This document shows, one piece after another, positions 3,931 through 21,247 of a DNA stretch of 40,354 nucleotides. Below the pieces are notes generated by a model, which was not told the DNA's origin, made no database searches, and was given only the letters and a program-made list of their open reading frames with translations. Positions within the stretch are counted from its first letter, which is position 1; the number at the start of each line of letters is the position of its first letter. The stretch covers positions 1-40,354 of the forward strand of contig JAJUIT010000003.1 of the NCBI GenBank assembly GCA_029267465.1, written 5' to 3'. A program made the translations under genes and the position numbers. Origin of the DNA: Synergistaceae bacterium. GTDB lineage: Bacteria > Synergistota > Synergistia > Synergistales > 79-D21.

Positions 3931-4632
3931 ATGGAAACCAAAAAAGTCAAGCCGACCCGGATCTACGAAAAGGTCGTAGAGGAGCTCAAGGATCTGATCT
4001 CTCGGGGTGAGCTGAAGCCCGGAGATCCGCTTCCGCCGGAACGGCAAATGATGGAAGACCTCGGCGTTAGCCGCAGCTCGCTGAGGGAAGCGTTCCGCGT
4101 CCTGGAGCTGATCGGCCTCATCGAGAGCGTTCCCGGAAAGGGGCGTTTCGTCAGGAGGCCCGTGACCGAGACCGGAGAATCCCGCAACATCCCGCTGGAA
4201 GGAGCCGCCGTGCTTGAGCTGATGGAGGCCCGGCGGATCATCGACCCCGCTATCGCCGCGGAAGCCGCGAAGCGTGCCCTGCCCTCCGACCTCACGAAGC
4301 TCCGCCGCATCCTTTCAAGAACGGAGCAGAACCTGGAATCGACGAGCCACCGCGCCCAGAACGACTTCGACTTCCACCTTGCCCTTGCCGAGGCAACCCA
4401 CAACTTTATCTTCGTCAACATCGTCAAGATGACCTTCAATCTCATCATGGCAGCCCACGACCGGATATACAGCCGCCTGACGGACAAGCAGGCGTTCCTC
4501 AAGGAACATACCGGGCTTTACACCGCCATCGTTGACCACGACGCGAAGCTGGCGGGAAAAATCGCGGGAACCCACATCGAGCGGGTCTACCACACCCTGC
4601 AGGAAAGCATCTCCCTGGAAGACCGGGGATGA
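3931..4632 (+). CDS. FadR/GntR family transcriptional regulator
   Basis: AAGGAGG RBS, ATG 3931. wHTH (LKPGDPLPPER..LGVSRSSLREA..LI...GKGRFV) plus FCD domain (DFDFHLALAEATHN). Confidence 0.95.
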   Translation: METKKVKPTRIYEKVVEELKDLISRGELKPGDPLPPERQMMEDLGVSRSSLREAFRVLELIGLIESVPGKGRFVRRPVTETGESRNIPLEGAAVLELMEARRIIDPAIAAEAAKRALPSDLTKLRRILSRTEQNLESTSHRAQNDFDFHLALAEATHNFIFVNIVKMTFNLIMAAHDRIYSRLTDKQAFLKEHTGLYTAIVDHDAKLAGKIAGTHIERVYHTLQESISLEDRG

Positions 4633-4674
4633 TCTGGCGAACCGAACCAAACAATGTCAAGGGAGGGAAGAAAC

Positions 4675-5232
4675 ATGAGAGAGAAAATCGTGGAGCTGCT
4701 GCCGGAAATCAACTGGATCACGGATCCGAAGCTGCGTGAGCAGGTCATCGACACGTACGTGGATGCCCTGAAAACCGGCGGCTGGGAGCCGGAGGACATG
4801 GCCAAAATCCCCTTCACGCTCCTGATCCCCAACTGCCCCGCTTCCTACCTGACCCACACGAGGGGCGTGACGCGCGTCTGCAAGAGAGTCTACGAGGAGT
4901 TCAACGCGCTTTACAAGGACGAGGGCGGCTTCCAGCTGGACCATGACAAGCTCATGGCCGGAGCGATCCTTCACGACGTGGGCAAGCTCGTCGAGTACGA
5001 GAAAGCTCCCGACGGCTCAACGGTCAAATCACAGATGGGCAAGGACCTCCGCCATCCCTTCTCCGGAACCGTGCTGGCCCTTCGCAACGGCATTTCCACC
5101 GAGATCGGCCACATTATCGCCAATCACGCCCACGAGGGTGACGGAACCCTCCGGAGCCCGGAGGGCGTCGTTGTCAACAAGGCCGACTTTGTGAACTTCG
5201 AAACCATCAAGTCGTTTTTGGGCATGAAGTAG
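4675..5232 (+). CDS. HD-domain (HDIG-type) metal-dependent phosphohydrolase
   Basis: GGGAGGG RBS, ATG 4675. Motifs HTRGV, ILHDVGK, RHPFSG, IANH, KAD. Confidence 0.9.
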   Translation: MREKIVELLPEINWITDPKLREQVIDTYVDALKTGGWEPEDMAKIPFTLLIPNCPASYLTHTRGVTRVCKRVYEEFNALYKDEGGFQLDHDKLMAGAILHDVGKLVEYEKAPDGSTVKSQMGKDLRHPFSGTVLALRNGISTEIGHIIANHAHEGDGTLRSPEGVVVNKADFVNFETIKSFLGMK

Positions 5233-5266
5233 GCTGTTCACAAACTTTCACGGGAGGTGCAACGCC

Positions 5267-6544
5267 ATGGGCAAGACGATGATCCAAAAGATCATCCAGA
5301 GGGCTTCCGGCAAGGAAGTCCAGGTAGGCGACCGGGTCTGGTGCAAGATCGACCTTTCCACGGCCCGGGATTTCGGGGGTCCCAACTGCGTCCTGCAGTT
5401 TGACGAAGTGACCGAAAAGGGGAAGGTCTGGGACCCCGACAAGATCGCCTTCACCTTTGACCTTCAGGCCCCAGCTCACGCCGAAAAGGTGGCCAACAAC
5501 CAGAAGATCATCCGGGATTTCGCCAAGCGCCAGGGCATCACGAAGGTGTTCGACGTCAACTGGGGAATCGGGCAGCACGTTCTTCTCGAGAACGGCCTCG
5601 TGAAACCCGGTGACGTCATCCTCGGGACCGACAGCCACATGAACCTGCTGGGCGGGGTCGGGGCATTCGCGACGGGCGTTGGCAACACCGACATCGTGGC
5701 CTCCTGGATCAACGGGACCCTTTGGTTCCGAGTTCCGGAAACGATGAAGATCACGGTCAACGGTTCCTTCGCCAGGGGAGTCTGCATGAGGGATTTCCTC
5801 ACCTTCCTCGTGGGCAAGCTGGGTGCTGACGGCATGTTCTTCAAGGCCGTGGAGTTCTACGGCGAAACCATCGAGAAGAGCTCCCTGGCGGACCGGATCA
5901 CCCTTTGCTCCATGGTCACCGAGATGAGCGGCAAGGTGGGACTCATCATGCCGAACGGGGAAGTCCTGGACTGGCTGGTCAAGCGGGCCGGAACGGAAGT
6001 CCTGGACCGCGTGCAGACGTTGAAGGCCGATCCGGATGCCGTTTACAGCGAAGATCTCCACTTCGACGTGACCGGTCTCGAACCGATGGCCTCCTGTCCC
6101 GATGCGCCGGACAACGTGAAGACGGTGCGTGAAGCCGCGGGAGCCCACATCGACCAGGTTCACATTGGTTCCTGCTCCAACGGCCGGTTCGAGGACATCG
6201 CGGCGGCTTTCGAAGTCTTGAAAGCGGCGAACTTCCAGATTAGCGACAGTGTCCGGACCATCATTACCCCGAGCACCCGGGAAGTCATGAAACAGTGCGC
6301 CGAGGCGGGATTCATCCAGAAGTTCCTCGAGGCGGGAGTCATCTTCACGAACCCGACCTGCAGCCTCTGCACGGCGGAACACTACGGCGTGCTTCCGGGA
6401 GGCGACGTGGGCGTTTCCACCACGAACCGGAACTTCATCGGCAAGGTAGGCAAGGGAAGCCACACCTACCTCGTGAGCCCCATGACGGCGATGGCCTCCG
6501 CGGTGAAGGGCGTTCTCACCGACCCGCGGGACATCCTGAAATAG
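5267..6544 (+). CDS. LeuC/homoaconitase-type Fe-S hydro-lyase large subunit, copy 1 (divergent active site)
   Basis: GTDSH, IGSCSNGR, PTCSLC (three cluster Cys), STTNRNFIG, YLVSP. GGGAGG RBS. Confidence 0.9.
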   Translation: MGKTMIQKIIQRASGKEVQVGDRVWCKIDLSTARDFGGPNCVLQFDEVTEKGKVWDPDKIAFTFDLQAPAHAEKVANNQKIIRDFAKRQGITKVFDVNWGIGQHVLLENGLVKPGDVILGTDSHMNLLGGVGAFATGVGNTDIVASWINGTLWFRVPETMKITVNGSFARGVCMRDFLTFLVGKLGADGMFFKAVEFYGETIEKSSLADRITLCSMVTEMSGKVGLIMPNGEVLDWLVKRAGTEVLDRVQTLKADPDAVYSEDLHFDVTGLEPMASCPDAPDNVKTVREAAGAHIDQVHIGSCSNGRFEDIAAAFEVLKAANFQISDSVRTIITPSTREVMKQCAEAGFIQKFLEAGVIFTNPTCSLCTAEHYGVLPGGDVGVSTTNRNFIGKVGKGSHTYLVSPMTAMASAVKGVLTDPRDILK

Positions 6545-6571
6545 GCGACTGGTTTTAAGGAGGGACAGACC

Positions 6572-7099
6572 ATGGAACAGAACGTCCTGCGCGGAAAGGC
6601 CTGGGTCTTCACCGATGACGTCGACACGGACCTGATTTACCACAACAAGTACCTGGCCGAAACCGACCCCAAAAAGATGGCCCAGTACTCGTTCGAGTAC
6701 TATCCCGGCAAGGAGAAGTTCGCCAAGGAGGCCAAGCCCGGCGACTTCGTCGTGGCGGGCCGCAATTTCGGAACGGGCTCCAGCCGCGAACACGCGGTTT
6801 ACTGCCTCAAGGAACTGGGAATCCCGGTCGTCCTGGCGGAATCCTTCGCCCGGATCTACTACCGCAACGCCATCAACAACGGCTACCCTGTTCTTTTCGT
6901 CAAAGGCCTGAGCGACGCGATCAAGGAAGGCAAAGTCAAGGACGGGGACGAACTGGAAGTGAACATCGCAACCGGCGAGATCAAGGACCTGACCAACGGC
7001 AACACCTTCCACGGAGACGCGGTCACGGACCTTGAAAAGGACATCATGGCCAGCGGCGGCCTGATCGAGTACCTCAAGGCCCAGGCGGCCAAGAAGTAG
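6572..7099 (+). CDS. LeuD-type hydro-lyase small subunit, copy 1
   Basis: DDVDTDLI, AGRNFGTGSSREHA, SFARIYYRNAINNG, GGLI. AAGGAGGG RBS. Confidence 0.93.
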   Translation: MEQNVLRGKAWVFTDDVDTDLIYHNKYLAETDPKKMAQYSFEYYPGKEKFAKEAKPGDFVVAGRNFGTGSSREHAVYCLKELGIPVVLAESFARIYYRNAINNGYPVLFVKGLSDAIKEGKVKDGDELEVNIATGEIKDLTNGNTFHGDAVTDLEKDIMASGGLIEYLKAQAAKK

Positions 7100-7114
7100 G
7101 GAGGGGAAGGACTC

Positions 7115-8371
7115 ATGGGCATGACGTTTGCTGAGAAGGTTCTCGGCAAGGCAGCGGGCTACGCGGTCAAGGCGGGAGACGTCGTCACGGTTGAACCCCA
7201 TTTTTGCATGAGTCACGACAACGCAGCCCCCATCGCCAAGACGTTCAAGAAGATCGGGGTTCCCAAGGTCTGGAAACCGGATCACCTGGTCTTCATCCTG
7301 GATCACGCGATTCCGGCGCCGACGGACGAGCACGCCGTAAACCACAAGGAGATCCGGGAGTTCGTCGAGGAACAGGGCATCCCCCACTTCTTCGACGTCA
7401 CCAGCAAGGGAGGCGTCTGCCACCAGAAGATGTGCGAGGAAGGGTTTGCGCTGCCCGGTCTCATCATCATCGGCAGCGACAGCCACACCTGCACCTACGG
7501 GGCCTACGGGGCCTTCTCGACCGGGATCGGCCGCAGCGAGATGGCCGCGGCCTGGGCCACCGGCAAGATCTGGTTCCGGGTTCCCGAATCCCTCAAGATC
7601 ACCGTGAAGGGCAAGTTCAACAAGGGCGTTTCGGCCAAGGACCTGATCCTGAAGATCATCGGCGACATCAAGGCTGACGGCGCGGACTACATGTCCGTCG
7701 AATTCCACGGCCCGGCGATTTCCGAGATGAGCCTCGCCGAAAGGATGACCCTATGCAACATGGGCATCGAGATGGGCGCGAAGAACGCCGTCTGCCCCCC
7801 GGACGAAAAGGTCCTGGAGGCCATCAGGGGAATCGAGAAGACGAATGAATGGGAAGCGATCTGGGCCGACGAGGACGCCGTATACGCCAAGGAGCTGACT
7901 TACGACCTGGGCGAACTGGTCCCCTGCGTCGCGAAGCCCCACACCGTCGACAATTACGCCTCGATCGACGAAGTGAAGGGGACGAAGATCCACCAGGCGT
8001 TTTTGGGCAGCTGCACCAACGCCCGGATCGAGGACCTGCGCCTGGCCGCGGAAATCCTGAAGGGGAAGGAAGTGGCGGTCCGGACCATCGTCATCCCGGC
8101 CTCCTGGAGGGTCTACCGCCAAGCCCTCGACGAGGGCTTGCTCGAAACCTTCCTTGATGCCGGCTGCGTCATCACGAACCCCGGCTGCGGCCCCTGCATG
8201 GGCAACCACGAGGGCATCCTGGCCCCGGGTGAAGCCTGCATCTCGACTGCCAACCGCAACTTCAAGGGACGCATGGGGAACAAGGACAGCTTCATCTACC
8301 TGGCCAGCCCCATGACCGTCGCCGCCTCCGCCCTGAAGGGCGAGATCGCCGACCCGCGGGAGGTGCTGTAA
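7115..8371 (+). CDS. LeuC/homoaconitase-type Fe-S hydro-lyase large subunit, copy 2 (canonical motifs)
   Basis: MSHDN, LDH, GVCHQ, GSDSHTCTYGA, GSCTNAR, PGCGPCMG, STANRNFKGRMG. Confidence 0.95.
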   Translation: MGMTFAEKVLGKAAGYAVKAGDVVTVEPHFCMSHDNAAPIAKTFKKIGVPKVWKPDHLVFILDHAIPAPTDEHAVNHKEIREFVEEQGIPHFFDVTSKGGVCHQKMCEEGFALPGLIIIGSDSHTCTYGAYGAFSTGIGRSEMAAAWATGKIWFRVPESLKITVKGKFNKGVSAKDLILKIIGDIKADGADYMSVEFHGPAISEMSLAERMTLCNMGIEMGAKNAVCPPDEKVLEAIRGIEKTNEWEAIWADEDAVYAKELTYDLGELVPCVAKPHTVDNYASIDEVKGTKIHQAFLGSCTNARIEDLRLAAEILKGKEVAVRTIVIPASWRVYRQALDEGLLETFLDAGCVITNPGCGPCMGNHEGILAPGEACISTANRNFKGRMGNKDSFIYLASPMTVAASALKGEIADPREVL

Positions 8372-8373
8372 CC

Positions 8374-8874
8374 ATGAAGATCCAGGGGAAGGTCTGGAAA
8401 TACGGGGATGATGTGAACACGGACGTCATCTTCGCCGGGAAGTACACCTACACGATCAAGGATCGCGCCGAGATGGCCAAGGTCGCCCTGGAGGACCTGG
8501 ATCCGGAATTCACGAAAAACGCCCAGGCAGGCGACATCATCGTCGCCGGGAAGAACTGGGGATGCGGCTCCAGCCGCGAGCAGGCCGTCACCTGCCTGAA
8601 GGAGCGGGGCATCGGCGCCATCATCGCCAAGGGCTTCGCCCGGATCTACTACCGCAACTGCCTGAACGAGGGCCTGCCGATCATCGTGTCGCCCGAAGCC
8701 GTCGACGCGATCAACGCCGGCGAAACGGTGGAGATCGATTTCGACGCGAGCGAGATCAGGACCGCCGGCGGGAAGGTCTTCAAGTTCCCGCCCTACCCCG
8801 AGTTCGTCCGGGGCCTCATCGAGGACGGCGGGCTGATCCCCCACGTGAAAAAATCACTGGGAATTTCCAAGTAA
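8374..8874 (+). CDS. LeuD-type hydro-lyase small subunit, copy 2
   Basis: GDDVNTDVI, GKNWGCGSSREQA, FARIYYRN, GGLI. Confidence 0.93.
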   Translation: MKIQGKVWKYGDDVNTDVIFAGKYTYTIKDRAEMAKVALEDLDPEFTKNAQAGDIIVAGKNWGCGSSREQAVTCLKERGIGAIIAKGFARIYYRNCLNEGLPIIVSPEAVDAINAGETVEIDFDASEIRTAGGKVFKFPPYPEFVRGLIEDGGLIPHVKKSLGISK

Positions 8875-8880
8875 GCCCGA

Positions 8881-8905
8881 GGGCGCGGGGGGACCTCCCG
8901 CGCCC
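8881..8905 (+). other. Intercistronic GC-rich stem-loop without a U-tract
   Basis: GGGCGCGGG / CCCGCGCCC arms between small subunit 2 and the dehydrogenase. Confidence 0.55.
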
Positions 8906-8941
8906 CGTTGAAACCACCAATTCAAGGGAGGGTAAAGCCGT

Positions 8942-10192
8942 ATGGATATCCGCAACGTTCTGAGAGTGAAAGAGATCAAGCCCCGCTACAAGGTCGCGTA
9001 CATCCCCGGAGACGACTCCGGTTTCGATGTCATGGAAGGCGCCATGATCGTGCTCCAGGCCATGGACAAGGCGTTCGGCCTGCCGATCGACTGGGTGCGG
9101 GCCGACATGGGCTGGTGCATGTGGGCAAAATCCTGCCAGGAATATCCCGAAGGCGACCCGAGGCGCAACACGGTTCCCGAGGAAACGAAGCAGATCCTCC
9201 GGGAGAGCGACGCCGCCCTCATGGCCGCCATCACTTCGAAGGCCGGCGTGAAAGGTTTCAAGTCCGCCATCCTGCAGATGCGCCAGCTCTTTGACCTTTA
9301 CATCAACCTGCGTCCCGCAAAGTCAATGCCCGGGATCACCTGTCCCCTGAAAGGCGACCCGAAGATCGACATCGTCATGTTCCGCGAGAACACCGAGGAC
9401 CTCTACGCGGCCGTCGAGTTCCGACCGACCCCGAAGGAACACTTCGATATGCATCCCGGCATGGCCCGCTTCAAGGACAAGGAAGAAGTCGCCGTTTCCT
9501 GGAAGGTCTTCTCCAAGGAAGGCTGCGAGCGCATCATCCGCGCCGCCTTCGAGTACGCCAAGGCCACCGGCCGGACCAAGGTCGTCTGCGCCACCAAGGC
9601 CAACGTCATCCGCGCCACGGACGGCATGTTCAAGGAGATCTTCCTGAACATGGCGAAGGAATACCCTGAAATCCAGGCCATCGACGAGAACGCCGACGCC
9701 ACCGCCATGTGGCTCATCAAGAACCCCCAGGATTACCAGGTCATCGTTACGCCGAACGTCTTCGGGGACATCCTCTCCGACGAGGCCAGCCAGCTCGTTG
9801 GCGGTATGGGATTCGCCCCCAGCGGCAACATCGGGAAGGACTTCGCCCTCTTTGAACCCAGCCACGGTTCCGTGCCGAAGTACGCCCACCAGTACAAGAT
9901 CAACCCCTGCGGCCTTCTGAACGCCGCCACCATGATGCTCGAGTACCTCGGCCTCGAAGAGGCCGCCAGGAAGCTCGAGGCCGCAATCAGCGCGGTCCTC
10001 GTTGAAGGCAAGGACCTGACCTACGACGTGTTCCGCGACAACGGCGATCCGGACTGGGAGAAGAAGGCCGTCTCGACGCTCGACATGGCCCGTGCCATCG
10101 CCCGAAAGATCCTTCCGGACTACGACAAGCACGATGCCGAAATCTCCGCGAAAGCGAAGGAGATGTGCGCCTGGGAGCACCTGCCCCAGTAA
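8942..10192 (+). CDS. Isocitrate/homoisocitrate/isopropylmalate (beta-decarboxylating) dehydrogenase family protein
   Basis: MRQLFDLYINLRP, FRENTEDLY, KANV, NVFGDILSDEA, FEPSHGSVPKYA. GGGAGGG RBS. Confidence 0.93.
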   Translation: MDIRNVLRVKEIKPRYKVAYIPGDDSGFDVMEGAMIVLQAMDKAFGLPIDWVRADMGWCMWAKSCQEYPEGDPRRNTVPEETKQILRESDAALMAAITSKAGVKGFKSAILQMRQLFDLYINLRPAKSMPGITCPLKGDPKIDIVMFRENTEDLYAAVEFRPTPKEHFDMHPGMARFKDKEEVAVSWKVFSKEGCERIIRAAFEYAKATGRTKVVCATKANVIRATDGMFKEIFLNMAKEYPEIQAIDENADATAMWLIKNPQDYQVIVTPNVFGDILSDEASQLVGGMGFAPSGNIGKDFALFEPSHGSVPKYAHQYKINPCGLLNAATMMLEYLGLEEAARKLEAAISAVLVEGKDLTYDVFRDNGDPDWEKKAVSTLDMARAIARKILPDYDKHDAEISAKAKEMCAWEHLPQ

Positions 10193-10213
10193 GTGCGGCA
10201 TTAGCGGACCCCG

Positions 10214-10244
10214 AGGGGCCCACTGCGCCGCGGTGGGCCCCTTT
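10214..10244 (+). terminator. Stem-loop with a short U-tail (weak terminator or processing site) before citD
   Basis: AGGGGCCCACTGC / GCGGTGGGCCCCT (one G-U pair) followed by TT. Confidence 0.5.
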
Positions 10245-10281
10245 CGCATCGCAGAACGAAAACGCGAAGGAGGTTGCAACC

Positions 10282-10557
10282 ATGAAAACCGCACAGGCCG
10301 GAACCGTGGAATCCATGGACTGCCTTGTCACGGTTTCCGAAGCCGAGCCGGGTACGGGGCTTGTCCTCAACCTGGCCGGATCAAGCGTGGCCCGGTTCTC
10401 GAAGGCCATGGAAAAGGCTGTCCGCGAAACGCTTGAAGGCCTCGGGATCCGGGACCTGGCCGTCAGCGTGCAGGACAACGGGGCCCTGGACCTCGTTCTG
10501 AAGGCTCGGCTCGAAGCCGCGGTCGCCCGGCTGAAAGAAGGGGGCGAATCGGCATGA
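10282..10557 (+). CDS. citD: Citrate (or citramalate-type) lyase acyl carrier protein, gamma subunit
   Basis: AAGGAGG RBS, ATG 10282. AGTVESMD prosthetic-group Ser motif and DNGALDLVLKARLEAA. 91 aa. Confidence 0.9.
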   Translation: MKTAQAGTVESMDCLVTVSEAEPGTGLVLNLAGSSVARFSKAMEKAVRETLEGLGIRDLAVSVQDNGALDLVLKARLEAAVARLKEGGESA

Positions 10558-11441
10558 GGCTCCGCAGAACGATGCTCTACCTTCCCGGGAACAATCCCAA
10601 CATGCTTCTTCGCGGCCATCTTTTCGCTCCCGACGGGCTGATCCTGGATCTGGAAGACGCGGTCGCGGTCCGGGAGAAGGACGCGGCCCGCGTCCTGGTC
10701 AGGGACGTCCTGAAGCGCGGGGAGTTCGGCTCCTGCGAGGTCACCGTCCGAATCAACGGGCTGGACACCGAATACTGGAGAAAAGACCTGGAGATGCTGG
10801 TCCCGCTGGGCAGGCTGGACGGGGTGCGGGCTCCGAAGGTCGACGACGCCGCCACGGTCCGGCTCCTGGACGAAGCGCTCAGCGAGATCGAAGAGAAAGC
10901 CGGGATCGAGGTCGGCAGGATCAAGATTTTCTGCCTGCTCGAAACGGCGAAGGGGATCTTCAACACCTACGACATCGCCACGGCCTCTCCGCGAGTGGCG
11001 GCGGTCATCCCGGGAGGCGAGGACTTGACCGCAGACCTTCGCACAAACCGTTCTCCCGAGGGAACCGAGCTCGAAGGAATCCGCAGGTCCGTGATCGTGG
11101 CCGCCCGTGCTGCGGGCGTTGACGCCCTGGACACGGTGTTCCCGAGGATCACCGACGACGAGGGGCTGAGGCGGGAAACGGAATTCATCAAGCAGCTCGG
11201 CTTTGACGGAAAGAGCGTGATCCATCCGAACCAGATCCCGATTATCCACGACGTCTTCACTCCCACGGAAAAGGAGATCGAGCGGGCGCAGAAGATCGTG
11301 GCGGCCGCGAAGGAAGCCGCAGAACGAGGGCTGGGAGCCGTCCAGGTGGACGGACGGATGGTGGACGCCCCCGTGGTGAAGCGGGCTCTCTTCACGCTCA
11401 CCCGGGCGGGGCTCCTGGAGGAGGGAACCGAGCATGCCTAA
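10554..11441 (+). CDS. citE: Citrate lyase beta subunit (citryl-ACP lyase; HpcH/HpaI family)
   Basis: RRTMLYLPGNNP, ILDLEDAV, VRIN, LETAKG, GFDGKSVIHPNQI, GRMVDAPVV. ATGA overlap with citD. Confidence 0.92.
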   Translation: MRLRRTMLYLPGNNPNMLLRGHLFAPDGLILDLEDAVAVREKDAARVLVRDVLKRGEFGSCEVTVRINGLDTEYWRKDLEMLVPLGRLDGVRAPKVDDAATVRLLDEALSEIEEKAGIEVGRIKIFCLLETAKGIFNTYDIATASPRVAAVIPGGEDLTADLRTNRSPEGTELEGIRRSVIVAARAAGVDALDTVFPRITDDEGLRRETEFIKQLGFDGKSVIHPNQIPIIHDVFTPTEKEIERAQKIVAAAKEAAERGLGAVQVDGRMVDAPVVKRALFTLTRAGLLEEGTEHA

Positions 11442-12984
11442 AAACATCCTTGGACGCGAGATTCCAGAATTCATCGAAGGGTACGGGGAAACCCAACCCT
11501 TCATGGGAGCAAGTGCGCGAAAACCCGAGGGGAACAGGGCCGGCCCGAAACTTCGTGCAACTTTTGGCGACTGCACCAGCAAGGTCATCCCCGACCTGAA
11601 GGCCGCCATCGCCGCTTCCGGCCTGAAGAGCGGCATGACCGTGTCGTTCCACCACCACCTCCGTAACGGCGACTACGTGGTCAACGCCGTCATCGATGCC
11701 TGCGCCGAAATGGGCATCCGGGACCTGACCCTCTTCCCGACCGCCCTCTTCGGGGTTCACAAAAAATTGATCGAACACATCAAGAGCGGGGTCATCCGGC
11801 GGATCATGGGATCGGTCAATGGCCCGATCGGACAGATGGTTTCGGAGGGCGGGATGGACGTCCCCGTGGTCCTTCGCAGTCATGGAGGGCGTCCCAGGGC
11901 TGTCGTCTCGGGGGATGTGAAGATCGACGTGGCCTTCATTGCCGCACCCACCGCCGATGCCTACGGGAACATCTGCGGCTCCCAGGGGAAATCGGCCTGC
12001 GGCTCCCTTGGCTACGCCTTCACGGACGCGATGTACGCCGACTGCGTCGTGGCCGTGACGGACAACCTGGTCCCCTTCCCTGCCGCCCCGGTTTCCATCC
12101 CGCAATACTACGTCGATATCGTTGCCGTCATGGACAGCATCGGCGACCCGGCGGGCATCGTTTCCGGCACGACGAGAATCACCCGGGACCCCCTGCGCCT
12201 CCTGATTTCCAAGTACGCTTCCCGCCTGATCGAGGCCAGCCCCTACTTTAAGGACGGGATCAGCTTCCAGACCGGTGCCGGCGGCATTTCCCTTGCGGTC
12301 ACCGCATTCATGAAGGAAGCCATGAAAAAACGGGGAGTGCGGGGCAGCTTCGGTCTGGGCGGCATCACGGGGTACTTCGTGGACCTGCTCAAGGAAGGCT
12401 ACGTCGAGAAACTCATGGACGTCCAGTCCTTTGACCTCGAGGCCGTGAAATCCATCGCCGAGAACCCCAACCACATCGAGATTTCGGCTGACTGGTACGC
12501 TAACCCCTGGAACGCCGGAACGGCGGTCAACATGCTCGACGTGGTCATCCTGGGCGCCACGGAGATGGACCGGGACTTCAACGTCAACGTCAACACCGAG
12601 GCCGACGGCGCGCTGCTGCACGGGATCGGCGGACACCAGGACACCGCAGCGGGGGCCAAGCTCACCATCATCAGCCAGCCCCTGCTCCGGGGACGCATCC
12701 CCTGCGTGGTGGACAAGGTCTATTCGGTCACGACGCCCGGGGAAGTTGTGGATGCCCTGGTCACCGAGTACGGCGTCACGATCAACCCGCGGAGGCAGGA
12801 CCTCATCGACGCCTGCAAGGAGGCCGGGAACGTTCCCCTGGTCTCCATGGACGAACTCATCGCCCGGGCCCACGAGATGTGCGGACCCGCGGACCCCGTG
12901 GAAACGGAGGACCGCATCATCGGCGTCATCGAGTGGCGGGACGGAACGGTCATCGACGTCGTCCGGCAGTTGAAGAAAAAGTAA
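11434..12984 (+). CDS. citF: Citrate lyase alpha subunit (citrate:acetyl-ACP transferase)
   Basis: SFHHHLRNGD, RSHGGRPRA, CGSLGYA, SFQTGAGG, DVQSFD, GGHQDTA, EWRDGTVIDVV. Confidence 0.95.
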   Translation: MPKNILGREIPEFIEGYGETQPFMGASARKPEGNRAGPKLRATFGDCTSKVIPDLKAAIAASGLKSGMTVSFHHHLRNGDYVVNAVIDACAEMGIRDLTLFPTALFGVHKKLIEHIKSGVIRRIMGSVNGPIGQMVSEGGMDVPVVLRSHGGRPRAVVSGDVKIDVAFIAAPTADAYGNICGSQGKSACGSLGYAFTDAMYADCVVAVTDNLVPFPAAPVSIPQYYVDIVAVMDSIGDPAGIVSGTTRITRDPLRLLISKYASRLIEASPYFKDGISFQTGAGGISLAVTAFMKEAMKKRGVRGSFGLGGITGYFVDLLKEGYVEKLMDVQSFDLEAVKSIAENPNHIEISADWYANPWNAGTAVNMLDVVILGATEMDRDFNVNVNTEADGALLHGIGGHQDTAAGAKLTIISQPLLRGRIPCVVDKVYSVTTPGEVVDALVTEYGVTINPRRQDLIDACKEAGNVPLVSMDELIARAHEMCGPADPVETEDRIIGVIEWRDGTVIDVVRQLKKK

Positions 12985-13015: not shown

Positions 13016-13049
13016 AGGGGGAGGCGGCGAACACCGCCTCCCCTTTCGT
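13016..13049. terminator. Probable bidirectional terminator between citF and the convergent CPBP gene
   Basis: GGGGAGGCGG / CCGCCTCCCC stem, A-run upstream and TTTCGTT downstream. Confidence 0.75.
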
Positions 13050-14368: not shown

Positions 14369-14415
14369 CCGATCCCCCCAGGTCCAGCCGCGGAAAGTTT
14401 CGACCGGTGCGGATA

Positions 14416-14445
14416 TTGTACCCTTTTCCCGGGGAAGGCTATACT
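14416..14445 (+). promoter_or_regulatory. Putative promoter for the subtilase-T2SS operon, in the short divergent region shared with the lgt-like gene
   Basis: TTGTAC-18 bp-TATACT. The same DNA gives TACAAT on the - strand (14420-14415) as a possible -10 for lgt. Confidence 0.45.
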
Positions 14446-14487
14446 GAAACTTGGCAGGGAGTTCAGCTCGCCCCGGGAGGGATCGAT

Positions 14488-16302
14488 TTGCGACACTGTT
14501 CCATGAAAAGATTAACGGCATTGACGGTGGCGGTCGTTTGCCTTGTCTTCACCCTGGCGGCGTGGACCGGCTTTTCGAAAAGCGGAGATGCCGGGGAAAG
14601 ACTTCCCCGGGGAGCCTCGTTCGTCCCGGACGAAATCCTCGTCCAGCTCAAACCCGGCTACCGGCTGGAAACCGTGCTTTCAGCCCTCCCCATGCAGCTT
14701 GTCGCGGAGGAACCCGGGAAACCCGCACCTCGCGGCCTTGCGAGGCTGAAGATCCCGCGGGGAGAGACGGTCATGAACGCGGTATCGCTTCTGAAAGGGA
14801 AAGAAGGCGTCCTCTTCGCCCAGCCCAATTACGTCTACCGGGCCGCCGTTTTCCCGGACGACCCCAGCTACCCCAACCAATGGGCCCTTCCGAAAATCGG
14901 GGCCCCGACCGCCTGGGACCTGGCCACCGGCAGTTCGGACGTCCTCGTCGCCGTCCTCGACACGGGGGTTGACCTCAGCCACCCGGACCTTGCGGGCAAC
15001 CTCTGGACAAACCCGGATGAAATTCCCGGAGACGGCCTGGACAACGACGGCAACGGGTACGTCGACGACGTCCACGGCTGGAACTCGTCCGCCAATTCCG
15101 CGGATGTCCAGGACGATTTCGGGCACGGCACCCACGTCGCCGGAATCATCGGCGCCGTGGGCAACAATGGAACGGGCGTCGCCGGCGTGAACTGGAAAGT
15201 CGGGATCATCGCCGTCAAGGCAAACAAGGGGGACAGCTTCACCACGCTGGATCTCGCCAGGGGAACCGGCTACGTCACGGCCCTCAGGACGGGCAAGGGC
15301 CTGCCGATCGTGGCCGTCAACGCTTCCCTGGGAGCCGCCGTGTCCGAGGATCCCCTGCTGAACCAGGCCATCATAAATGCCGGCGAGGCAGGCATCCTTT
15401 TCGTCGCGGCTGCCGGCAACGACAACAGCGACAACGACCGGACGCCCTTCTACCCCTCCAGCCTGTTCAGGCCGAACGTGCTGTCGGTCGCCGCCACGGA
15501 CGAGAACGATGCCCTCGCGATCTTCAGCCTCCTCACTAACGAGGGCTCGAATTACGGACGACGGACCGTTCACCTTGGAGCCCCCGGCAAGTACATCGAG
15601 AGCACCTACTACTTCATAAGTACAAGCGCCGATACCCCGAGCGGTTATGAGAGACTAAGCGGGACCTCGATGGCGGCACCCCACGTGACCGGCATCCTGG
15701 CCCTCCTGAAGGCCCAGGATCCGAGCCGGGACTGGATCGCCCTGAAAAACAGGGTGCTTTCTACGGGAACCCCCTTGTCCGGCCTATCCTCGAAAACCAT
15801 AACGGGACGGCGCCTCCTGGCGGCCGGGGACGGTGCCTTAGGCGCCCTGACCGGAAGCGGCCAGACGGTGAAGTCCCGCCTTCGGCCCATCCCCGACAGC
15901 CTGGACCTGGAACAGGGAACGTCGCTGGACCTTGCCGCCCTGAACATCTCCGGGGAAGAATCCCTGGGGGACCTCCCCGTTTCGATCACCCGAAACGGAG
16001 CTTCCTACGGGACCCTCACCCTGAGGGACAACGGGACCGGGTTCGACCAGGCAGCGGGAGACGGGATCGCTTCCGCGACCTGGACGGTCCCCTCGTCGGC
16101 GAACAGCACCTACGTCTTCGCCTTCCCGGACGGGAACCTGACGGTGACGGTCGATCTCGCTGAAGAACCCCCCGCCCCGTCCGGCGGAGGCGGAGGGGGC
16201 GGCTGCAGCGCGGCCGGCGGCCTGGGACCGTTTTTCTTTCTCTGCATCCCAGCCGCACTCTTCGCCCTGAAAAGGAAGAAACCCGCGCCGCCTGACCGAT
16301 GA
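14488..16302 (+). CDS. S8 subtilisin-like serine protease with signal peptide, propeptide, C-terminal beta domain and Gly-rich/Cys C-terminal sorting tag (SYNERG-CTERM-like)
   Basis: GGGAGGG RBS before TTG 14488 (alternative ATG 14503). Triad VLDTG, HGTHVAG, GTSMAAPH; oxyanion AAAGN. LRDNG..DQAAGDG motif. Ends SGGGGGGGCSAAGGLGPFFFLCIPAALFALKRKK. Confidence 0.93.
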   Translation: MRHCSMKRLTALTVAVVCLVFTLAAWTGFSKSGDAGERLPRGASFVPDEILVQLKPGYRLETVLSALPMQLVAEEPGKPAPRGLARLKIPRGETVMNAVSLLKGKEGVLFAQPNYVYRAAVFPDDPSYPNQWALPKIGAPTAWDLATGSSDVLVAVLDTGVDLSHPDLAGNLWTNPDEIPGDGLDNDGNGYVDDVHGWNSSANSADVQDDFGHGTHVAGIIGAVGNNGTGVAGVNWKVGIIAVKANKGDSFTTLDLARGTGYVTALRTGKGLPIVAVNASLGAAVSEDPLLNQAIINAGEAGILFVAAAGNDNSDNDRTPFYPSSLFRPNVLSVAATDENDALAIFSLLTNEGSNYGRRTVHLGAPGKYIESTYYFISTSADTPSGYERLSGTSMAAPHVTGILALLKAQDPSRDWIALKNRVLSTGTPLSGLSSKTITGRRLLAAGDGALGALTGSGQTVKSRLRPIPDSLDLEQGTSLDLAALNISGEESLGDLPVSITRNGASYGTLTLRDNGTGFDQAAGDGIASATWTVPSSANSTYVFAFPDGNLTVTVDLAEEPPAPSGGGGGGGCSAAGGLGPFFFLCIPAALFALKRKKPAPPDR

Positions 16303-16913
16303 GCCGCGTGGGACAAAATCCCGGAAAGGGTTTTACCCTGGTCGAGGTTCTCGTGGCCATCGGTTTGATGGGCCTGGTGTCGGCGCTCGCCCTCGGGCCT
16401 TTGGCTGCTTTGACCGTAAGGCTGGAAGCGCTTCGGGCGCAGTATGCCGAAGAAGCGGCCCTTTCGTCGGCGCTTTCAGGCATCGCCGCGGACTGCCGGC
16501 AAATCCTCCCTCAAGGGGGAGATGCCCCCTTCCGGACGATCCGGAGAGAGGTCCTCGGGGGGGGCAGGAAAGATGTTCTCCTGGTCTGGACAGGGGCCCC
16601 CCTTTCCAGAAACCAGCCAGCGGCTACCGAGGTTTTTTCGATCGCCGACACCGGCCCCTTCCGGGAGCCGATCCAGCCGGGGCTGTACCGCTGGACCCTG
16701 GCGGGGACCCTCCCCGCGGACGTCAGCCCGGAGCGCCTGGACCCCAGGAAGGCGACCCTCCTGGTGAAAGGGGCGGATCGCTTTTCCGTCTCGGTGTTTG
16801 ACGGCAAGGAATGGGTCGAAGATTATTCCGGACCGGTTCCCCCGGGAGTGGCGCTTGGAATCTCAAGAAGGGGGGTCGAGGCCTCCCATGTGGACACGGT
16901 GCTTTCCTTCTAG
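16299..16913 (+). CDS. gspJ: Type II secretion minor pseudopilin, GspJ-like
   Basis: Prepilin motif KGFTLVEVLVA. 204 aa. C-terminal W...W....P.GV pattern. Directly upstream of gspK. Confidence 0.75.
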   Translation: MSRVGQNPGKGFTLVEVLVAIGLMGLVSALALGPLAALTVRLEALRAQYAEEAALSSALSGIAADCRQILPQGGDAPFRTIRREVLGGGRKDVLLVWTGAPLSRNQPAATEVFSIADTGPFREPIQPGLYRWTLAGTLPADVSPERLDPRKATLLVKGADRFSVSVFDGKEWVEDYSGPVPPGVALGISRRGVEASHVDTVLSF

Positions 16914-17817
16914 CGGGAGGCGGCAGGGCTTCGTCCTCGTCGCCGTCCTGATGGCTGTGGCTGTGCTCGTGACGGGAGCGCTCGCCTTTGCCTGGTTTTC
17001 CAGGATGGAGGTCCGCAAGGCGGAAGCTCTCGCCTTCTCGCTCGAGGCCCGAAGCCTGGCTGAAACCGCCGTATGGGAAATGAAACGGGGGCTTGTCCTG
17101 GATTCGAACGGCTCGGATTCCCTCCTGGAACCCTGGTTCGGGACCTGGCCCCTTCCGGTGGAGGGAAACATCGCCGTTCTCGTGCGCCTGGTTCCGAAAA
17201 ACGACGCGTTGCCGGTGAATTCGCTTTTTCTCCCGGACGGGATCACCCTGAGGCGCGAGTTGGAGATCCCCTGGCAAAGGCTCTGGGAGGAGCTGAAAAG
17301 ACCGGAGCTCGCCGAAGACCTGCTGGATTTCCTTGACAGGGACACGACCCCGAGAGCCGGGGGCCGCGAAGATCCACCCTTTCTCAACCGGCCCCCTTCT
17401 TCCCTGGAGGAGTTGCGCCTTTTCCCGGGCATTGACGAAACGCTCTACAGCGGGAAGAATGAAAAAATCCCGAAAGGGTTGGAGGATTTCCTGACCGTCC
17501 ACAGCGATGGGCGGATTAACGTCAACGTCGCGGCTCCCGGAGTCCTGGAGCTCCTCGACCCGACCCTCACCCCGGCCGTGGTCCGGGAGATCCTCGAAAG
17601 GAGAAACGGGGACCCCCTGTCCGGATGGAACGACCTCTCCGCTCTTCCGGGATTCCCCGCGGGGCTGGAACCGCGGCTTTCGGGTCTTCTGTCTTTCGCC
17701 AGCTCGCATTTTCTGGCACAGATCGAGGTTCGAAAGGGAAACCTCGTTCGACGTTTCGAGGCCGTGCTTCTCAAAAAGGAAAACCGCTGCACGGTCATCG
17801 CCTGGAAGGAGATGTAG
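16888..17817 (+). CDS. gspK: Type II secretion minor pseudopilin GspK
   Basis: RQGFVLVAVL (no Glu5), LLDFLDRD, SLEELRLFPG, GRINVNVA, SSHF. Start taken at ATG 16888. Confidence 0.88.
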   Translation: MWTRCFPSSGRRQGFVLVAVLMAVAVLVTGALAFAWFSRMEVRKAEALAFSLEARSLAETAVWEMKRGLVLDSNGSDSLLEPWFGTWPLPVEGNIAVLVRLVPKNDALPVNSLFLPDGITLRRELEIPWQRLWEELKRPELAEDLLDFLDRDTTPRAGGREDPPFLNRPPSSLEELRLFPGIDETLYSGKNEKIPKGLEDFLTVHSDGRINVNVAAPGVLELLDPTLTPAVVREILERRNGDPLSGWNDLSALPGFPAGLEPRLSGLLSFASSHFLAQIEVRKGNLVRRFEAVLLKKENRCTVIAWKEM

Positions 17818-17823
17818 CGGGGC

Positions 17824-18906
17824 ATGAAAGCCGAATTGACGGGTGGAAAACTCCCCTGCCGTTTCGTCACCCCGGAAGAAATGTCGTTCCATCCCTTTTC
17901 CTTCCCCTTCAGCGATCCGGCCCGCATCCGCCAGGCCCTTTTGCTGCAGCTCGCTTCCCTGATGGGGGAGGATTCGAAGCGGTTGCACCTGTGCCCGGTG
18001 GTTTTCCAGAGAGAAAAGGAAAGGACCCGGGGAGTTGCTCTGGTCTATCCGGATGACCTGGACAAGGGGCTGGAAAAAGGCGGAGAAACGCGCCTTTTTC
18101 CGGCTCCCCTAGCTTTCGGTGCGGCCCTCGACGGTTCAGGCCTCGGTGTTTGGGCCGACGAAAGCCACGTGTCGGCCGTCCTCTGGCGGGAGGGGATCCC
18201 AATCCTTTACCGCTGCGTTTCGCGGGCCGAGGCCGAACCCCAAGAGGTGATCGAATGGGTTCGGTCCTCTTCGGGAGAATCGGATTTCCCCGTCTTCCTC
18301 TTGGACAGCCGCGTCCTTCCCGATGCGGCGGAGCGCCTGGAGGCAGAGGCCCGGCGGACCTGGGCCGCCTTCCCTGCCCTCGCCCCCCTGGACCTTTCCC
18401 CCCGGCGCATGGAATCAGCCCTGCGGATCGAGCACCTTTCGGCCAACCTCAAACCCGCCCTTTCCGCCGGCCTGGTCCTGGGAATTCTCTTTTTGGCCGC
18501 TTCCGCCCTTTCCGCCCTTTCCGCCCAAAACCGTCTCGAAGCCTATGAAACGGCCTCCATCCGGCTTTACCGCGAGGTCTTCGACCCCACCGGCCCCGTT
18601 CGCGACCCCCTGAGCCAGGCTAAAGCCCGCCTGGCCGCCGTTTCCGGTACGGAGGAAAACGACGGGCTGATCCAGGTTTTCGCCATGCTGGGACGGGCCT
18701 GCCAGAAATCCGGTGAGGGGATCGTTCTCGATACGCTGCGATACTCCCAGAGACAGACGGAATTGACCGGCAAGGGACCATCCGTGGAGGCCGTCCGGGC
18801 CTTCCAACAGGCCCTGGAAGCCGGGGAAACTTCGCTCGAGGATCTCCAGCAGCTTCCCGCGGGACAGTACCGCTTCAAAATCATCGTCAGGGGGAAAAAC
18901 CAGTGA
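17824..18906 (+). CDS. gspL: Type II secretion inner-membrane platform protein GspL
   Basis: Position after gspK. FPFSDPARIRQAL cytoplasmic domain, one TM, LYREVF...VRDPLSQAK, PilN-like periplasmic end. Confidence 0.75.
   Translation: MKAELTGGKLPCRFVTPEEMSFHPFSFPFSDPARIRQALLLQLASLMGEDSKRLHLCPVVFQREKERTRGVALVYPDDLDKGLEKGGETRLFPAPLAFGAALDGSGLGVWADESHVSAVLWREGIPILYRCVSRAEAEPQEVIEWVRSSSGESDFPVFLLDSRVLPDAAERLEAEARRTWAAFPALAPLDLSPRRMESALRIEHLSANLKPALSAGLVLGILFLAASALSALSAQNRLEAYETASIRLYREVFDPTGPVRDPLSQAKARLAAVSGTEENDGLIQVFAMLGRACQKSGEGIVLDTLRYSQRQTELTGKGPSVEAVRAFQQALEAGETSLEDLQQLPAGQYRFKIIVRGKNQ
18501..18526 (+). repeat. In-frame 9-bp tandem repeat (TTCCGCCCT, about 3 copies) in gspL
   Basis: Seen directly; encodes SALSALSA at the end of the TM segment. 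Confidence 0.6.
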
Positions 18907-20895: not shown

Positions 20896-21233
20896 AGGAA
20901 AAGAGAACATTCCGCCGGGGAGGCTTCACCCTGCTGGAAGTGTTAGTCGCTGTTTCAATCATGGGCCTTGCGGCGGCCGGAGCCCTGAGACTGGTCTTTC
21001 TTTCGGAGAAAGCCCTGGATGAAGCCCGCCAGAAACGTCTTTTCATCGAGGAAGTTTCACGGCTGCGTCTCGACCTGCTTTACGGAAGGGCCCCGGACAA
21101 CGGCAAAAGCGGCGACCTGTTCTGGGAAACACGCCGCGTTAGCCGCCCTTTTCTGGACAACCGCTGGGATATCCGGTACAGGACGGTGTCGGTCAAATCC
21201 AAAACCCGCACCATGGAACTGATACTTCCCTGA
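20892..21233 (+). CDS. gspI: Type II secretion minor pseudopilin, GspI-like
   Basis: RRGGFTLLEVLVAVSI prepilin motif. 113 aa, the size of GspI. Confidence 0.72.
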   Translation: MKEKRTFRRGGFTLLEVLVAVSIMGLAAAGALRLVFLSEKALDEARQKRLFIEEVSRLRLDLLYGRAPDNGKSGDLFWETRRVSRPFLDNRWDIRYRTVSVKSKTRTMELILP

Positions 21234-21247
21234 GGGAGGGGATTCTC

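Follow-up and report, generated by a model that had tools for sequence, protein, structure and literature searches.

A conserved Synergistota operon joining two LeuCD-type hydro-lyases, a decarboxylating dehydrogenase and a CitDEF-type lyase: a possible ATP-free route between 2-oxoacids and acetate

Which conversion could call for two aconitase-family hydro-lyases, a beta-decarboxylating dehydrogenase and a citrate lyase-type enzyme encoded side by side? This question is raised by a ten-gene unit located at positions 3931-12984 of contig JAJUIT010000003.1 of a Synergistaceae bacterium (GenBank assembly GCA_029267465.1), within an analyzed stretch of 40,354 nucleotides, referred to below as the window. 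The unit encodes a GntR-family regulator, an HD-domain protein, two LeuC/LeuD-type pairs (named here C1D1 and C2D2), a dehydrogenase of the Iso_dh family (DH) and the three subunits of a CitDEF-type lyase; labels such as G243 and L103 denote genomes and loci, respectively. The analysis revealed that this operon is real, conserved and catabolic, and that it is mislabelled by public annotation. As for its function, our leading explanation, to which we give somewhat less than an even chance, is an ATP-free catabolic module interconverting a 2-oxoacid, CO2 and NADPH with acetate and the next-shorter 2-oxoacid by way of alkyl-malates, the most likely substrate being 2-oxobutyrate.

A scan for C1 with one genome per species gave 141 relatives, and 80 loci were kept for locus counts. 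In 27 of them, all from Synergistota, the genes for GntR, HD, C1, D1, C2, D2, DH, CitE and CitF follow one another in identical order, and the arrangement is not due to chance. The preliminary description of this DNA had proposed neighborhood conservation as a check and had asked whether citDEF is syntenic elsewhere; both are borne out by these 27 loci, and the unit is separately regulated. The regulator gene is present in 27/27 full loci and in 44/80 loci overall, while an HD homolog (61-97% identity) lies directly upstream of C1 in 61/80, which makes HD-C1-D1 the conserved core of the unit. DH orthologs (E <= 1e-100) were found in 94 of 268 Synergistota genomes, representing 38 of 76 genera, and all ten operon genes occur in order in the genome G243, whose DH is letter-identical to a protein named by NCBI from Thermanaerovibrio acidaminovorans. 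Within the flanks of the 27 full loci there is no conserved carrier or pathway gene, and the absence of a conserved transporter suggests an internal substrate. Other loci contain parts of the unit: in seven of the 80, C1D1-C2D2-DH occur without a lyase despite at least 3.5 kb of sequence past DH (the five genomes of this group that were examined all have CitF elsewhere), and in 18, mostly of Lachnospiraceae, Oscillospiraceae and Acidaminobacter, C1D1 is accompanied by divergent CitE/F (<50% identical). Genes of PrpF-family isomerases are present in 18/80 loci, including 14 of the 18 with divergent citDEF and none of the 27 full ones; the non-full loci also hold PrpD-family, Amidohydro_2, CitC, CitXG, and Tct or CitMHS carrier genes.

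The remaining genome of the window (93.6% complete) narrows the possible roles of the operon. A true ilvN-ilvC-leuA-leuC-leuD-leuB-ilvB cluster is localized on contig C73, apart from the operon, and because this complete separate set exists, the operon is not leucine biosynthesis, as had been anticipated in the preliminary description. The LeuC and LeuD proteins of the ilv/leu cluster score 589.4 and 238.1 bits, just under the equivalog cut-offs (610.65 and 245.85, respectively). No PF00285 citrate synthase was found in the window's genome, the genome-wide PF00682 matches are limited to LeuA (its only LeuA-type synthase) and one OadA-like protein (fragment), and a search of the same genome gave no further aconitase, Iso_dh (isocitrate dehydrogenase) or CitF paralog. 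The lack of a feeding synthase fits a route ending in acetate and an oxoacid, so that the catabolic logic suggested earlier for the combination of dehydrogenase, hydro-lyase and acyl carrier protein (ACP)-dependent lyase was judged right. With no synthase and no conserved carrier, the simplest assumption is that an internal 2-oxoacid is linked to acetate and a shorter 2-oxoacid. Moreover, the genes citC and citX (contig C115) and citG (contig C163, 232 bits), all unlinked to the operon, are encoded in this genome, and therefore the lyase can be activated. The warning that automated labels would hide such a unit also proved justified, as the public annotation of C1 and DH gives only "isopropylmalate/homoaconitate/isocitrate family".

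The most informative component with respect to the substrate is DH (8942..10192, plus strand; 416 aa; Pfam Iso_dh 6.4e-88). This protein reaches no NCBIfam equivalog cut-off: the best match is AksF2, the methanogen homoisocitrate dehydrogenase (304.6 vs. 540 bits), the best isocitrate dehydrogenase model gives 281.3 vs. 509 bits, and the models of isopropylmalate dehydrogenase (IPMDH) and homoisocitrate dehydrogenase (HICDH) give 192.8 vs. 353.2 (TIGR00169), 304.6 vs. 540 (NF040626) and 257.1 vs. 500 (NF040619). Immediately ahead of the first catalytic Arg, the window's DH and 42 orthologs (43 sequences) all share the motif GFKSAILQMR. In the corresponding place, isocitrate dehydrogenases (PDB 2d1c, 6ltf, 2dht, 2iv0, 3dms, 4ajb and 2d4v, Icd of G243 and Icd of Escherichia coli) have S-x-N-V, the Thermus HICDH (1x0l) has A-I-R, the HICDH entry 3ah3 has A-I-M and the Sulfolobus IPMDH (1wpw) has V-V, whereas DH reads A-I-L. 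It therefore lacks S-x-N-V, having Ile-Leu where all aligned isocitrate dehydrogenases have Asn-Val, and its Leu replaces the Arg of the Thermus HICDH. We take the Asn of S-x-N-V to correspond to Asn115, the residue of E. coli Icd contacting the isocitrate gamma-carboxylate, and the Thermus Arg to be Arg85, whose exchange for Val reportedly abolishes isocitrate use and allows isopropylmalate use. Judging from the alignment, DH carries an IPMDH-like hydrophobic pair within an isocitrate dehydrogenase-like scaffold. Like the NADP-dependent E. coli Icd, DH retains the motifs PKYA and TYDxxR, and it is probably NADP-dependent as well.

The hydro-lyases belong to the two-subunit LeuCD/HacAB type of the aconitase superfamily (PF00330 in the large subunit, PF00694 with GSSRE in the small one, and three Cys ligands). 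Residue numbers given below are those of pig aconitase, transferred by using the ordinary aconitase of G243 as a bridge; we take Gln72 and Arg580 to be the positions handling the third carboxylate. The conventional LeuC/HacA-type large subunit C2 (7115..8371, plus strand; 418 aa; Aconitase 1e-101) keeps Asp100-His101, His147 and Asp165-Ser166-His167 in 46/46 sequences, with Gln72 replaced by His, a residue found at this position also in MjIPMI and MjHACN; its Cys motifs are GSCTN and GCGPC. Its scores are 483 bits for HacA_Meth (cut-off 550), 482.5 for LEU2 (610.65) and 316 for NF005558 (612). The small subunit D2 (8374..8874, plus strand; 166 aa; Aconitase_C 1e-16) reaches 189.6 bits with TIGR02087, 169.5 vs. 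245.85 with LeuD (TIGR02084) and 164.6 vs. 230 with the Hac small-subunit equivalog. It keeps GSSRE, and its loop GKYTYT[IV][KS][DE]R has YTYT where the Methanocaldococcus jannaschii homoaconitase (2pkp) has YLRT, and hence lacks the Arg of the latter. Because the catalytic residues are kept, His occupies the Gln72 position and the YLRT Arg is missing from D2, C2D2 looks like an ordinary isopropylmalate/citramalate-type isomerase. None of the four subunits reaches the LeuC/LeuD equivalogs, and neither pair qualifies as a HacAB homoaconitase (NF040615/NF040604/NF040625, YLRT Arg) or as an aconitate hydratase (NF005558/TIGR01340), given that both C1 and C2 are under the NF005558 cut-off and have Arg and His, respectively, in place of Gln72.

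The pair C1D1 is different. The best PDB match of the atypical large subunit C1 (5267..6544, plus strand; 425 aa; Aconitase 5.4e-81) is the M. jannaschii isopropylmalate/citramalate isomerase 4nqy (368 bits), and its equivalog scores are far below the cut-offs (NF005558 239 vs. 612 bits; LeuC, TIGR02083, 364 vs. 610.65). The cluster Cys motifs GSCSNGR and TCSLC are kept. The aconitase catalytic set (Asp100-His101, His147, Asp165-Ser166-His167) is not conserved in C1, since in 81/81 sequences Gln72 is replaced by Arg, His101 by Leu, His147 by Gln with the neighboring Gln148 changed into His, and Thr168 by Met. In the phylogenetic tree, all C1 proteins group in one long-stemmed clade, whose sisters are C2 and a third type from Pyramidobacter, and their mean column identity is 84% across phyla. 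By these patterns, the active site of C1 is rewired rather than decayed. The small (swivel) subunit D1 (6572..7099, plus strand; 175 aa; Aconitase_C 1.8e-18) passes TIGR02087 (170 bits vs. the cut-off of 109) and stays below LeuD (TIGR02084, 144.7 vs. 245.85). It retains GSSRE, its loop IYHNKYLAETDP is near-invariant in 76 sequences, and it reads YLAE where 2pkp has YLRT. The Arg580 column is occupied by Glu or Pro in D1 and by Thr or Lys in D2, in an alignment of the small-subunit loop that shifted between two runs and on which we do not rely. C1D1 proteins 70-76% identical to these, with an identical D1 loop, occur in loci with PrpF-family isomerases, i.e., enzymes catalyzing double-bond shifts in acids of the itaconate, methylitaconate and aconitate type.

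The HD-domain metalloprotein, encoded by the partner gene of C1D1 (4675..5232, plus strand; 185 aa; Pfam HD 4.5e-11), has the features of the HD fold, with H61, H100-D101, H127, H146, H151 and D171 invariant in an alignment of 19 sequences. For its AlphaFold2 model (pLDDT 94), the best fold match in PDB was the YhaM HD domain (TM 0.63), a generic resemblance; the sequence search of PDB returned only YhaM (E 0.22), and the ESM Atlas only "HD domain" clusters. Since its gene is tightly linked to C1, it is suggested to be a catalytic or maintenance partner of C1; a complex prediction with C1D1 scored 0.00, which gives no verdict either way. An HD homolog with 40% identity is also encoded at 4087-4617 of L094 (G018:C10), about 13 kb from a LeuCD pair in a genome without a DH ortholog, which extends the HD family beyond the operon.

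The lyase consists of a citD-type acyl carrier protein (10282..10557; 91 aa; Pfam ACP 3.4e-24), a citE-type acyl-ACP lyase, the beta subunit (10554..11441; 295 aa; HpcH_HpaI 5.4e-63), and a citF-type acetyl-ACP:substrate transferase, the alpha subunit (11434..12984; 516 aa; CitF 2.4e-174), all on the plus strand. The CitE protein does not reach TIGR01588 (325.3 vs. 443.4 bits), and neither does the context-supported citrate lyase CitE of G243 encoded beside aconitase and Icd (313.9 bits). Identity to the E. coli proteins is 44% for CitE and 49% for CitF, and the CitE/F proteins of the operon, of the Firmicutes type and of E. coli are about equally distant (39-50% identity). In a CitF tree (midpoint-rooted, no support values), the operon clade neighbors the citDEF of a glmS-mutL-glmE-methylaspartase-mesaconase cluster. 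The citDEF genes of such methylaspartate-pathway clusters have been proposed to encode a citramalate lyase giving acetate and pyruvate (PMC4682846). No citDEF was found in four regions around glutamate mutase in Synergistota, and a paper on the malyl-CoA lyase structure offered no rule separating citryl from citramalyl substrates.

How could these enzymes work together? In the alkyl-malate route that we tentatively prefer, DH would carboxylate a 2-oxoacid reductively to a 3-substituted malate, C2D2 would dehydrate the latter to a substituted maleate, C1D1, perhaps together with the HD protein, would hydrate the maleate to a 2-substituted malate in the configuration accepted by a CitE-type lyase, and CitDEF, activated by the products of citC/citX/citG, would cleave it through acetyl-ACP exchange and the lyase cycle. 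In the methyl case, 2-oxobutyrate (from threonine or methionine), CO2 and NADPH would thus be converted via 3-methylmalate, citraconate and citramalate to acetate and pyruvate. What was observed is which genes are present, how they are conserved and duplicated, and which residues they share; substrate, direction and stereochemistry are inferred. An uncharged substituent is probable, because DH has the Ile-Leu pair, C2 has His in place of Gln72 and D2 is devoid of the homoaconitase Arg; it would most likely be methyl, because C1D1 sits with PrpF isomerases, the CitF clade lies near the methylaspartate citDEF and the product would be pyruvate. Of the options listed in the preliminary description, citramalate/citraconate utilization is the one that fits best, with the reservation that no transporter is linked to the operon.

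The alkyl-malate route also offers a reason for the second hydro-lyase. In the reactions of LeuCD/HacAB-type enzymes, the isomers formed from 3-substituted malates belong to the (R)-citramalate/(R)-homocitrate/(2S)-isopropylmalate series, while the CitE-family lyases characterized to date all act, to our knowledge, on members of the (S)-citryl/(S)-citramalyl/(S)-malyl series. The mismatch between the two series would explain why another hydro-lyase is needed. For citrate, which is prochiral, the difference is irrelevant, and it matters for any other substituent. C1D1, with its relocated acid/base residues and an Arg in the pocket that accommodates the third carboxylate in aconitase, is a candidate for the hydration with the opposite configuration. 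By our own accounting, the 2-oxobutyrate branch is redox-neutral up to acetate and gives one ATP from pyruvate; as there are no net reducing equivalents, an amino-acid fermenter could produce acetate and ATP with no H2 release. For the whole conversion, we estimate from standard values an equilibrium constant near 1, and hence acetate, CO2 and H2 may decide its direction.

Several points weigh against this explanation. All substrate assignments are based on a few residues plus gene context, and methyl, ethyl and isopropyl substituents are indistinguishable from the present data. A conserved Arg is present in D2 shortly after the loop aligned with Arg580, and some of the partner loci of C1D1 contain TctABC or CitMHS carriers, typical of tricarboxylates. 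Acidaminobacter (G268) has a methylaspartate-linked citDEF and another citEF besides that beside C1D1; as other lyases are already there, the C1D1-linked lyase may differ from both in specificity, as a third type. Expression of citDEF may be uncoupled from that of the preceding genes by the DH-citD spacer. In the open full-text literature, we found no description of the operon or of reductive carboxylation of 2-oxobutyrate in fermentation, and the fates given for 2-oxobutyrate in anaerobes by a 2021 review (Buckel) are oxidation and reduction only (PMC8473912). Finally, three points suit substrates with a third carboxylate: CitF and CitD pass the NCBI citrate lyase equivalog cut-offs (TIGR01584, 657 vs. 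501.45 bits, and TIGR01608, 75.3 vs. 63.5 bits, respectively), the Arg of C1 at the Gln72 position could bind a third carboxylate (such as the carboxymethyl group of aconitate), and the window's genome, having no other aconitase or isocitrate dehydrogenase and possessing glutamate dehydrogenases and an OAD_beta subunit, would suit 2-oxoglutarate.

A module with an isocitrate dehydrogenase proper is found in the same phylum. The genome G243 contains three citF genes. One is preceded by the genes of an aconitase of 646 aa (NF005558, 940 bits) and of an Icd sharing 60% identity with that of E. coli, a 99%-identical copy of this citF follows GntR-TctC-TctA, and the third belongs to the operon studied here. 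In nine of nine loci examined, the canonical aconitase and Icd genes are adjacent; citDEF comes next in five of them and Tct genes lie upstream in two. The complete cluster of aconitase, NADP-Icd and citD-citE-citF is localized at 4885-11135 of L103 (G243:C1:18000-37999), and further examples are L110, L111, L112 and L115. Canonical Icd was found in 27/268 Synergistota genomes, 19 of which also carry the operon-type DH; these are non-independent relatives, and the co-occurrence is used only to show that the two modules are not alternatives. In those genomes, citrate and isocitrate are already served by enzymes of their own, since the canonical aconitase-Icd pair is present, and for the canonical module one hydro-lyase is enough. 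The canonical cluster could serve citrate fermentation or, run in reverse, could provide a route for glutamate from 2-oxoglutarate through citrate to acetate and oxaloacetate.

For T. acidaminovorans a methylaspartate route was reportedly proposed in a 13C study by Plugge et al. in 2001. Such a route has no gene basis in G243 (listed as 100% complete), because glutamate mutase E (PF06368) has no match there. Glutamate mutase was found in 7/268 Synergistota genomes, and none was detected in the window's genome. The missing match in G243 agrees with the reported lack of methylaspartase activity in T. acidaminovorans: after growth on glutamate, 2-oxoglutarate or succinate, its extracts had citrate lyase but neither isocitrate dehydrogenase nor methylaspartase (PMC3035242). 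As G243 has three citF genes, the citrate lyase activity cannot be assigned to the operon, and the absent isocitrate dehydrogenase activity argues mildly against DH being such an enzyme.

These data allow weighing of an explanation that we regard as unlikely, namely a tricarboxylate route, in which DH would convert 2-oxoglutarate (from glutamate) to isocitrate, C2D2 and C1D1 would each be half of an aconitase, and CitDEF would give acetate and oxaloacetate, the latter passing to pyruvate via a Na+-pumping decarboxylase. The citF and citD scores, the C1 Arg and the genome content mentioned above (including the absence of another citF and of a detected glutamate mutase in the window's genome) speak for it, as do the rarity of glutamate mutase in the phylum (7/268), the fumarase and malic enzyme genes flanking the module in two to three loci, and the citrate lyase found without methylaspartase in T. 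acidaminovorans (PMC3035242). The same extracts had no isocitrate dehydrogenase activity (PMC3035242), and the S-x-N-V Asn is missing from DH in all 43 sequences. Furthermore, C2 lacks Gln72, there is no stable Arg580 equivalent, DH and canonical Icd coexist in 19 genomes, and prochiral citrate gives no reason for two hydro-lyases; with its aconitase-Icd-citDEF and Tct-citDEF clusters, G243 does not need the operon to account for citrate lyase activity. The label "tricarboxylate", under which the operon had been presented, lost ground with the missing Asn of DH, the missing Gln72 of C2D2 and the 19 genomes with both enzymes, and so did the specific option of carboxylating 2-oxoglutarate toward citrate, which is affected by the DH motif, the C2 residues and the co-occurring canonical Icd. 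The label seems doubtful and is the weaker option, and the alkyl-malate route fits residues and paralogy better. The homologous proposal, a reversal of the alpha-aminoadipate pathway in lysine fermentation (2-oxoadipate and CO2 via homoisocitrate, cis-homoaconitate and homocitrate to acetate and 2-oxoglutarate), is improbable, although AksF2 is the best NCBIfam match of DH (304.6 bits), C2 scores equally for HacA and LeuC, and A-I is common to DH and the Thermus HICDH. Thermus and fungal lysine synthesis also needs two hydro-lyases, which counts in favor of this reversal. T. acidaminovorans ferments lysine to acetate and propionate (PMC3035242). Every Hac/Aks score is nevertheless under its cut-off, D2 has no YLRT Arg, DH has Leu where the Thermus HICDH has Arg (a point which weakened this option of the preliminary description), and the PrpF and carrier genes around the 70%-identical C1D1 of gut Firmicutes are difficult to explain with a homoaconitate-type substrate.

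Two other explanations were considered. The operon might be a branch point, at which citramalate, citraconate, itaconate or mesaconate enters and leaves either through CitDEF as acetate and pyruvate, or through C2D2 and DH as 2-oxobutyrate, CO2 and NADPH (toward propionate or isoleucine). Entry in the middle of a module is suggested for citrate by the Tct carriers linked to the canonical module in 2/9 loci, and the seven loci with C1D1-C2D2-DH and no neighboring lyase, the association of C1D1 with PrpF-family isomerases and carriers in other phyla, and the position of the whole chain near equilibrium (our own estimate from standard free energies) are in line with it. We consider it rather improbable, as the 27 full loci have no conserved carrier next to them, a source of the acid in the form of PrpF, PrpD or a methylaspartate pathway is absent from the window's genome, and the five examined genomes without a neighboring lyase all have CitF elsewhere. 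The operon might also be a second leucine/isoleucine-type set acting on 2-/3-isopropylmalate, either as biosynthetic redundancy or for shortening leucine to 2-oxoisovalerate and acetate. This is very improbable: DH does have Ile-Leu where IPMDHs have hydrophobic pairs, and C1 and D1 match best the M. jannaschii isopropylmalate/citramalate isomerase, yet a complete leu operon is already present, the LeuB, LeuC and LeuD equivalog scores are far under the cut-offs, a lyase and a GntR regulator are unsuited to biosynthesis, and the catalytic changes of C1 are unlike any LeuC aligned.

The systems most similar to the operon illustrate its composite character. LeuCD (M. jannaschii MJ0499/MJ1277, PDB 4nqy/3vba) and LeuB likewise combine a two-subunit Fe-S hydro-lyase with a subsequent beta-decarboxylating dehydrogenase; the M. 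jannaschii isopropylmalate/citramalate isomerase provides the best PDB matches of C1, D1 and D2, and C2 keeps the checked aconitase catalytic residues. The operon differs in having two hydro-lyase pairs, no synthase and a terminal lyase, in the loss of His101 from C1, and in DH, which, unlike LeuB, groups by score with isocitrate/homoisocitrate enzymes. With the E. coli citCDEFXG citrate lyase it shares the same three subunits, and the accessory genes are present in the window's genome, although here citE is under its cut-off, the accessory genes are unlinked and citDEF is joined to a LeuCD/Iso_dh set. The canonical module of G243 (L103) has the same order of hydro-lyase, decarboxylating dehydrogenase and citDEF, but its hydro-lyase is one 646-aa aconitase, its Icd has S-L-N-V, and it coexists with the operon-type DH in 19 genomes. 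Pairing of an aconitase-family dehydratase with a PrpF-family isomerase is known from AcnD/PrpF of the 2-methylcitrate cycle and DmdAB/Mii of nicotinate fermentation in Eubacterium barkeri; by gene context, it is echoed by C1D1 and PrpF in 14/18 divergent-citDEF loci, in contrast to the full loci (0/27) and to the window's genome, in which tblastn with a PrpF query found none. In the methylaspartate route, a CitDEF homolog, the neighbor of the operon proteins in the CitF tree, likewise gives acetate and pyruvate (PMC4682846), while the hydratase there is a class I fumarase (mesaconase), fed by glutamate mutase and methylaspartase.

With respect to expression, the regulator gene (3931..4632, plus strand; 233 aa) encodes, as in GntR/FadR-type regulators, a GntR helix-turn-helix at the N terminus (Pfam 1.1e-19) and an FCD ligand domain at the C terminus (2.4e-21), and its product reaches no equivalog (best LldR, 131.5 vs. 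311 bits). All ten genes, confirmed by ORF calls, Pfam and NCBIfam, lie on the plus strand, each with a GGAGG-like box at most 20 nt upstream, and their GC content at third codon positions (GC3) is 0.74-0.89, in full agreement with the co-oriented genes, ribosome-binding sites and C/G-ending codons noted in the preliminary description; its statement that isopropylmalate and homocitrate synthases are missing holds too, no HMGL-type synthase being among the operon genes. The start of HD was refined to the in-frame ATG at 4675, downstream of a GGAGGG box, and that of citD to the ATG at 10282 behind a GGAGG box, in favor of which a GTG at 10165 was dropped. The intergenic gaps are, in order, 42, 34, 27, 15, 2, 67, 89, -4 and -8 nt. 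The longest, the DH-citD spacer (10193-10281, 89 nt; RNAfold -41.3 kcal/mol), includes a GC-rich 13-bp hairpin (10214..10242, plus strand) followed by TTTCGC, and a structured, strongly folded spacer of 82-410 nt is present in 27/27 full loci; it may act as an internal attenuator or a transcript processing site. A GC-rich, terminator-like hairpin between the convergent citF and CAAX protease genes (13018..13043) is the likely operon end. Scanning of the plus strand for promoters gave no site above chance. Contigs of four RNA-labelled libraries from relatives (92-97% identity) bridge GntR-HD-C1, C1-D1, D1-C2, C2-D2 and D2-DH and reach into the spacer, although such contigs cannot show transcripts, and the gap in their coverage at 10341-10661 proves nothing. 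The flanking genes, PRK/rhodanese genes upstream on the minus strand and CAAX protease and Lgt genes downstream, are unrelated to the operon. Further along the window, a subtilase gene (14407-16302) precedes a type II secretion/pilus-like set (16299-26325) encoding prepilin-type proteins, a GspL-like protein, a secretin, a T2SSE ATPase, T2SSF and T2SSG.

Variants of the module were also noted. In one group of Synergistaceae metagenome-assembled genomes, whose names point to the insect gut, a gene of a PNPOx-like flavoprotein (164 aa) is inserted between D2 and DH (L023:13639-14133 and 11 other loci); these loci have no adjacent citDEF, and in two to three of them the module has genes of class I fumarase and malic enzyme at its flanks. 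In gut and rumen Firmicutes and Pyramidobacter (L073, L075, L058, L061, L029 and others without C2D2-DH), PrpF, C1D1, divergent citDEF, CitC/CitXG and a carrier (Tct, CitMHS/MatC or AEC) are found together, often with PrpD-family and Amidohydro_2 (lactonase/decarboxylase-like) genes. By their gene content, these clusters resemble an anaerobic pathway, so far undescribed, acting on an unsaturated di- or tricarboxylate, e.g., aconitate or itaconate. Acidaminobacter hydrogenoformans (G268) has three CitF-type lyase systems (L106, L107 and L073): one is part of a complete methylaspartate-pathway cluster, another is accompanied by PrpF, TctCBA, CitC, an Iso_dh gene and CitXG, and the third adjoins HD-C1D1.

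In anaerobic digesters, guts and oral biofilms, Synergistota are core fermenters of amino acids, and in most of them the conversion of C4-C6 oxoacids to acetate is not settled. If the alkyl-malate route is correct, a CO2- and NADPH-consuming pathway with an ATP-independent lyase would constitute a new redox-balancing branch of fermentation, and flux models of syntrophic amino-acid degradation would change. Two unexplored enzymes would also be gained, an aconitase-family hydro-lyase without the canonical His101 and a CitDEF-type lyase, and the operon is a concrete case of a pathway masked by automated leuC/leuD/leuB/citrate lyase labels. The PrpF-C1D1-citDEF clusters of gut Firmicutes may, in turn, bear on the breakdown of aconitate or itaconate. 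A broader idea, possible but doubtful at present, is that Synergistota possess an undescribed family of "retro-elongation" fermentation modules, cut down in gut Firmicutes, which combine NADPH-dependent carboxylation, isomerization and cleavage by an ACP-lyase, the operon being the alkyl version and the canonical cluster the 2-oxoglutarate version. If so, such modules would spend neither ATP nor CoA and would release less H2, and the central innovation of the alkyl version would lie in C1D1 and the HD protein, as an aconitase-family hydratase devoid of His101 whose tertiary alcohol product has the configuration that suits a CitE-type lyase; the 2-oxoglutarate version would explain how acetate is formed from glutamate in organisms lacking both known glutamate fermentation pathways.

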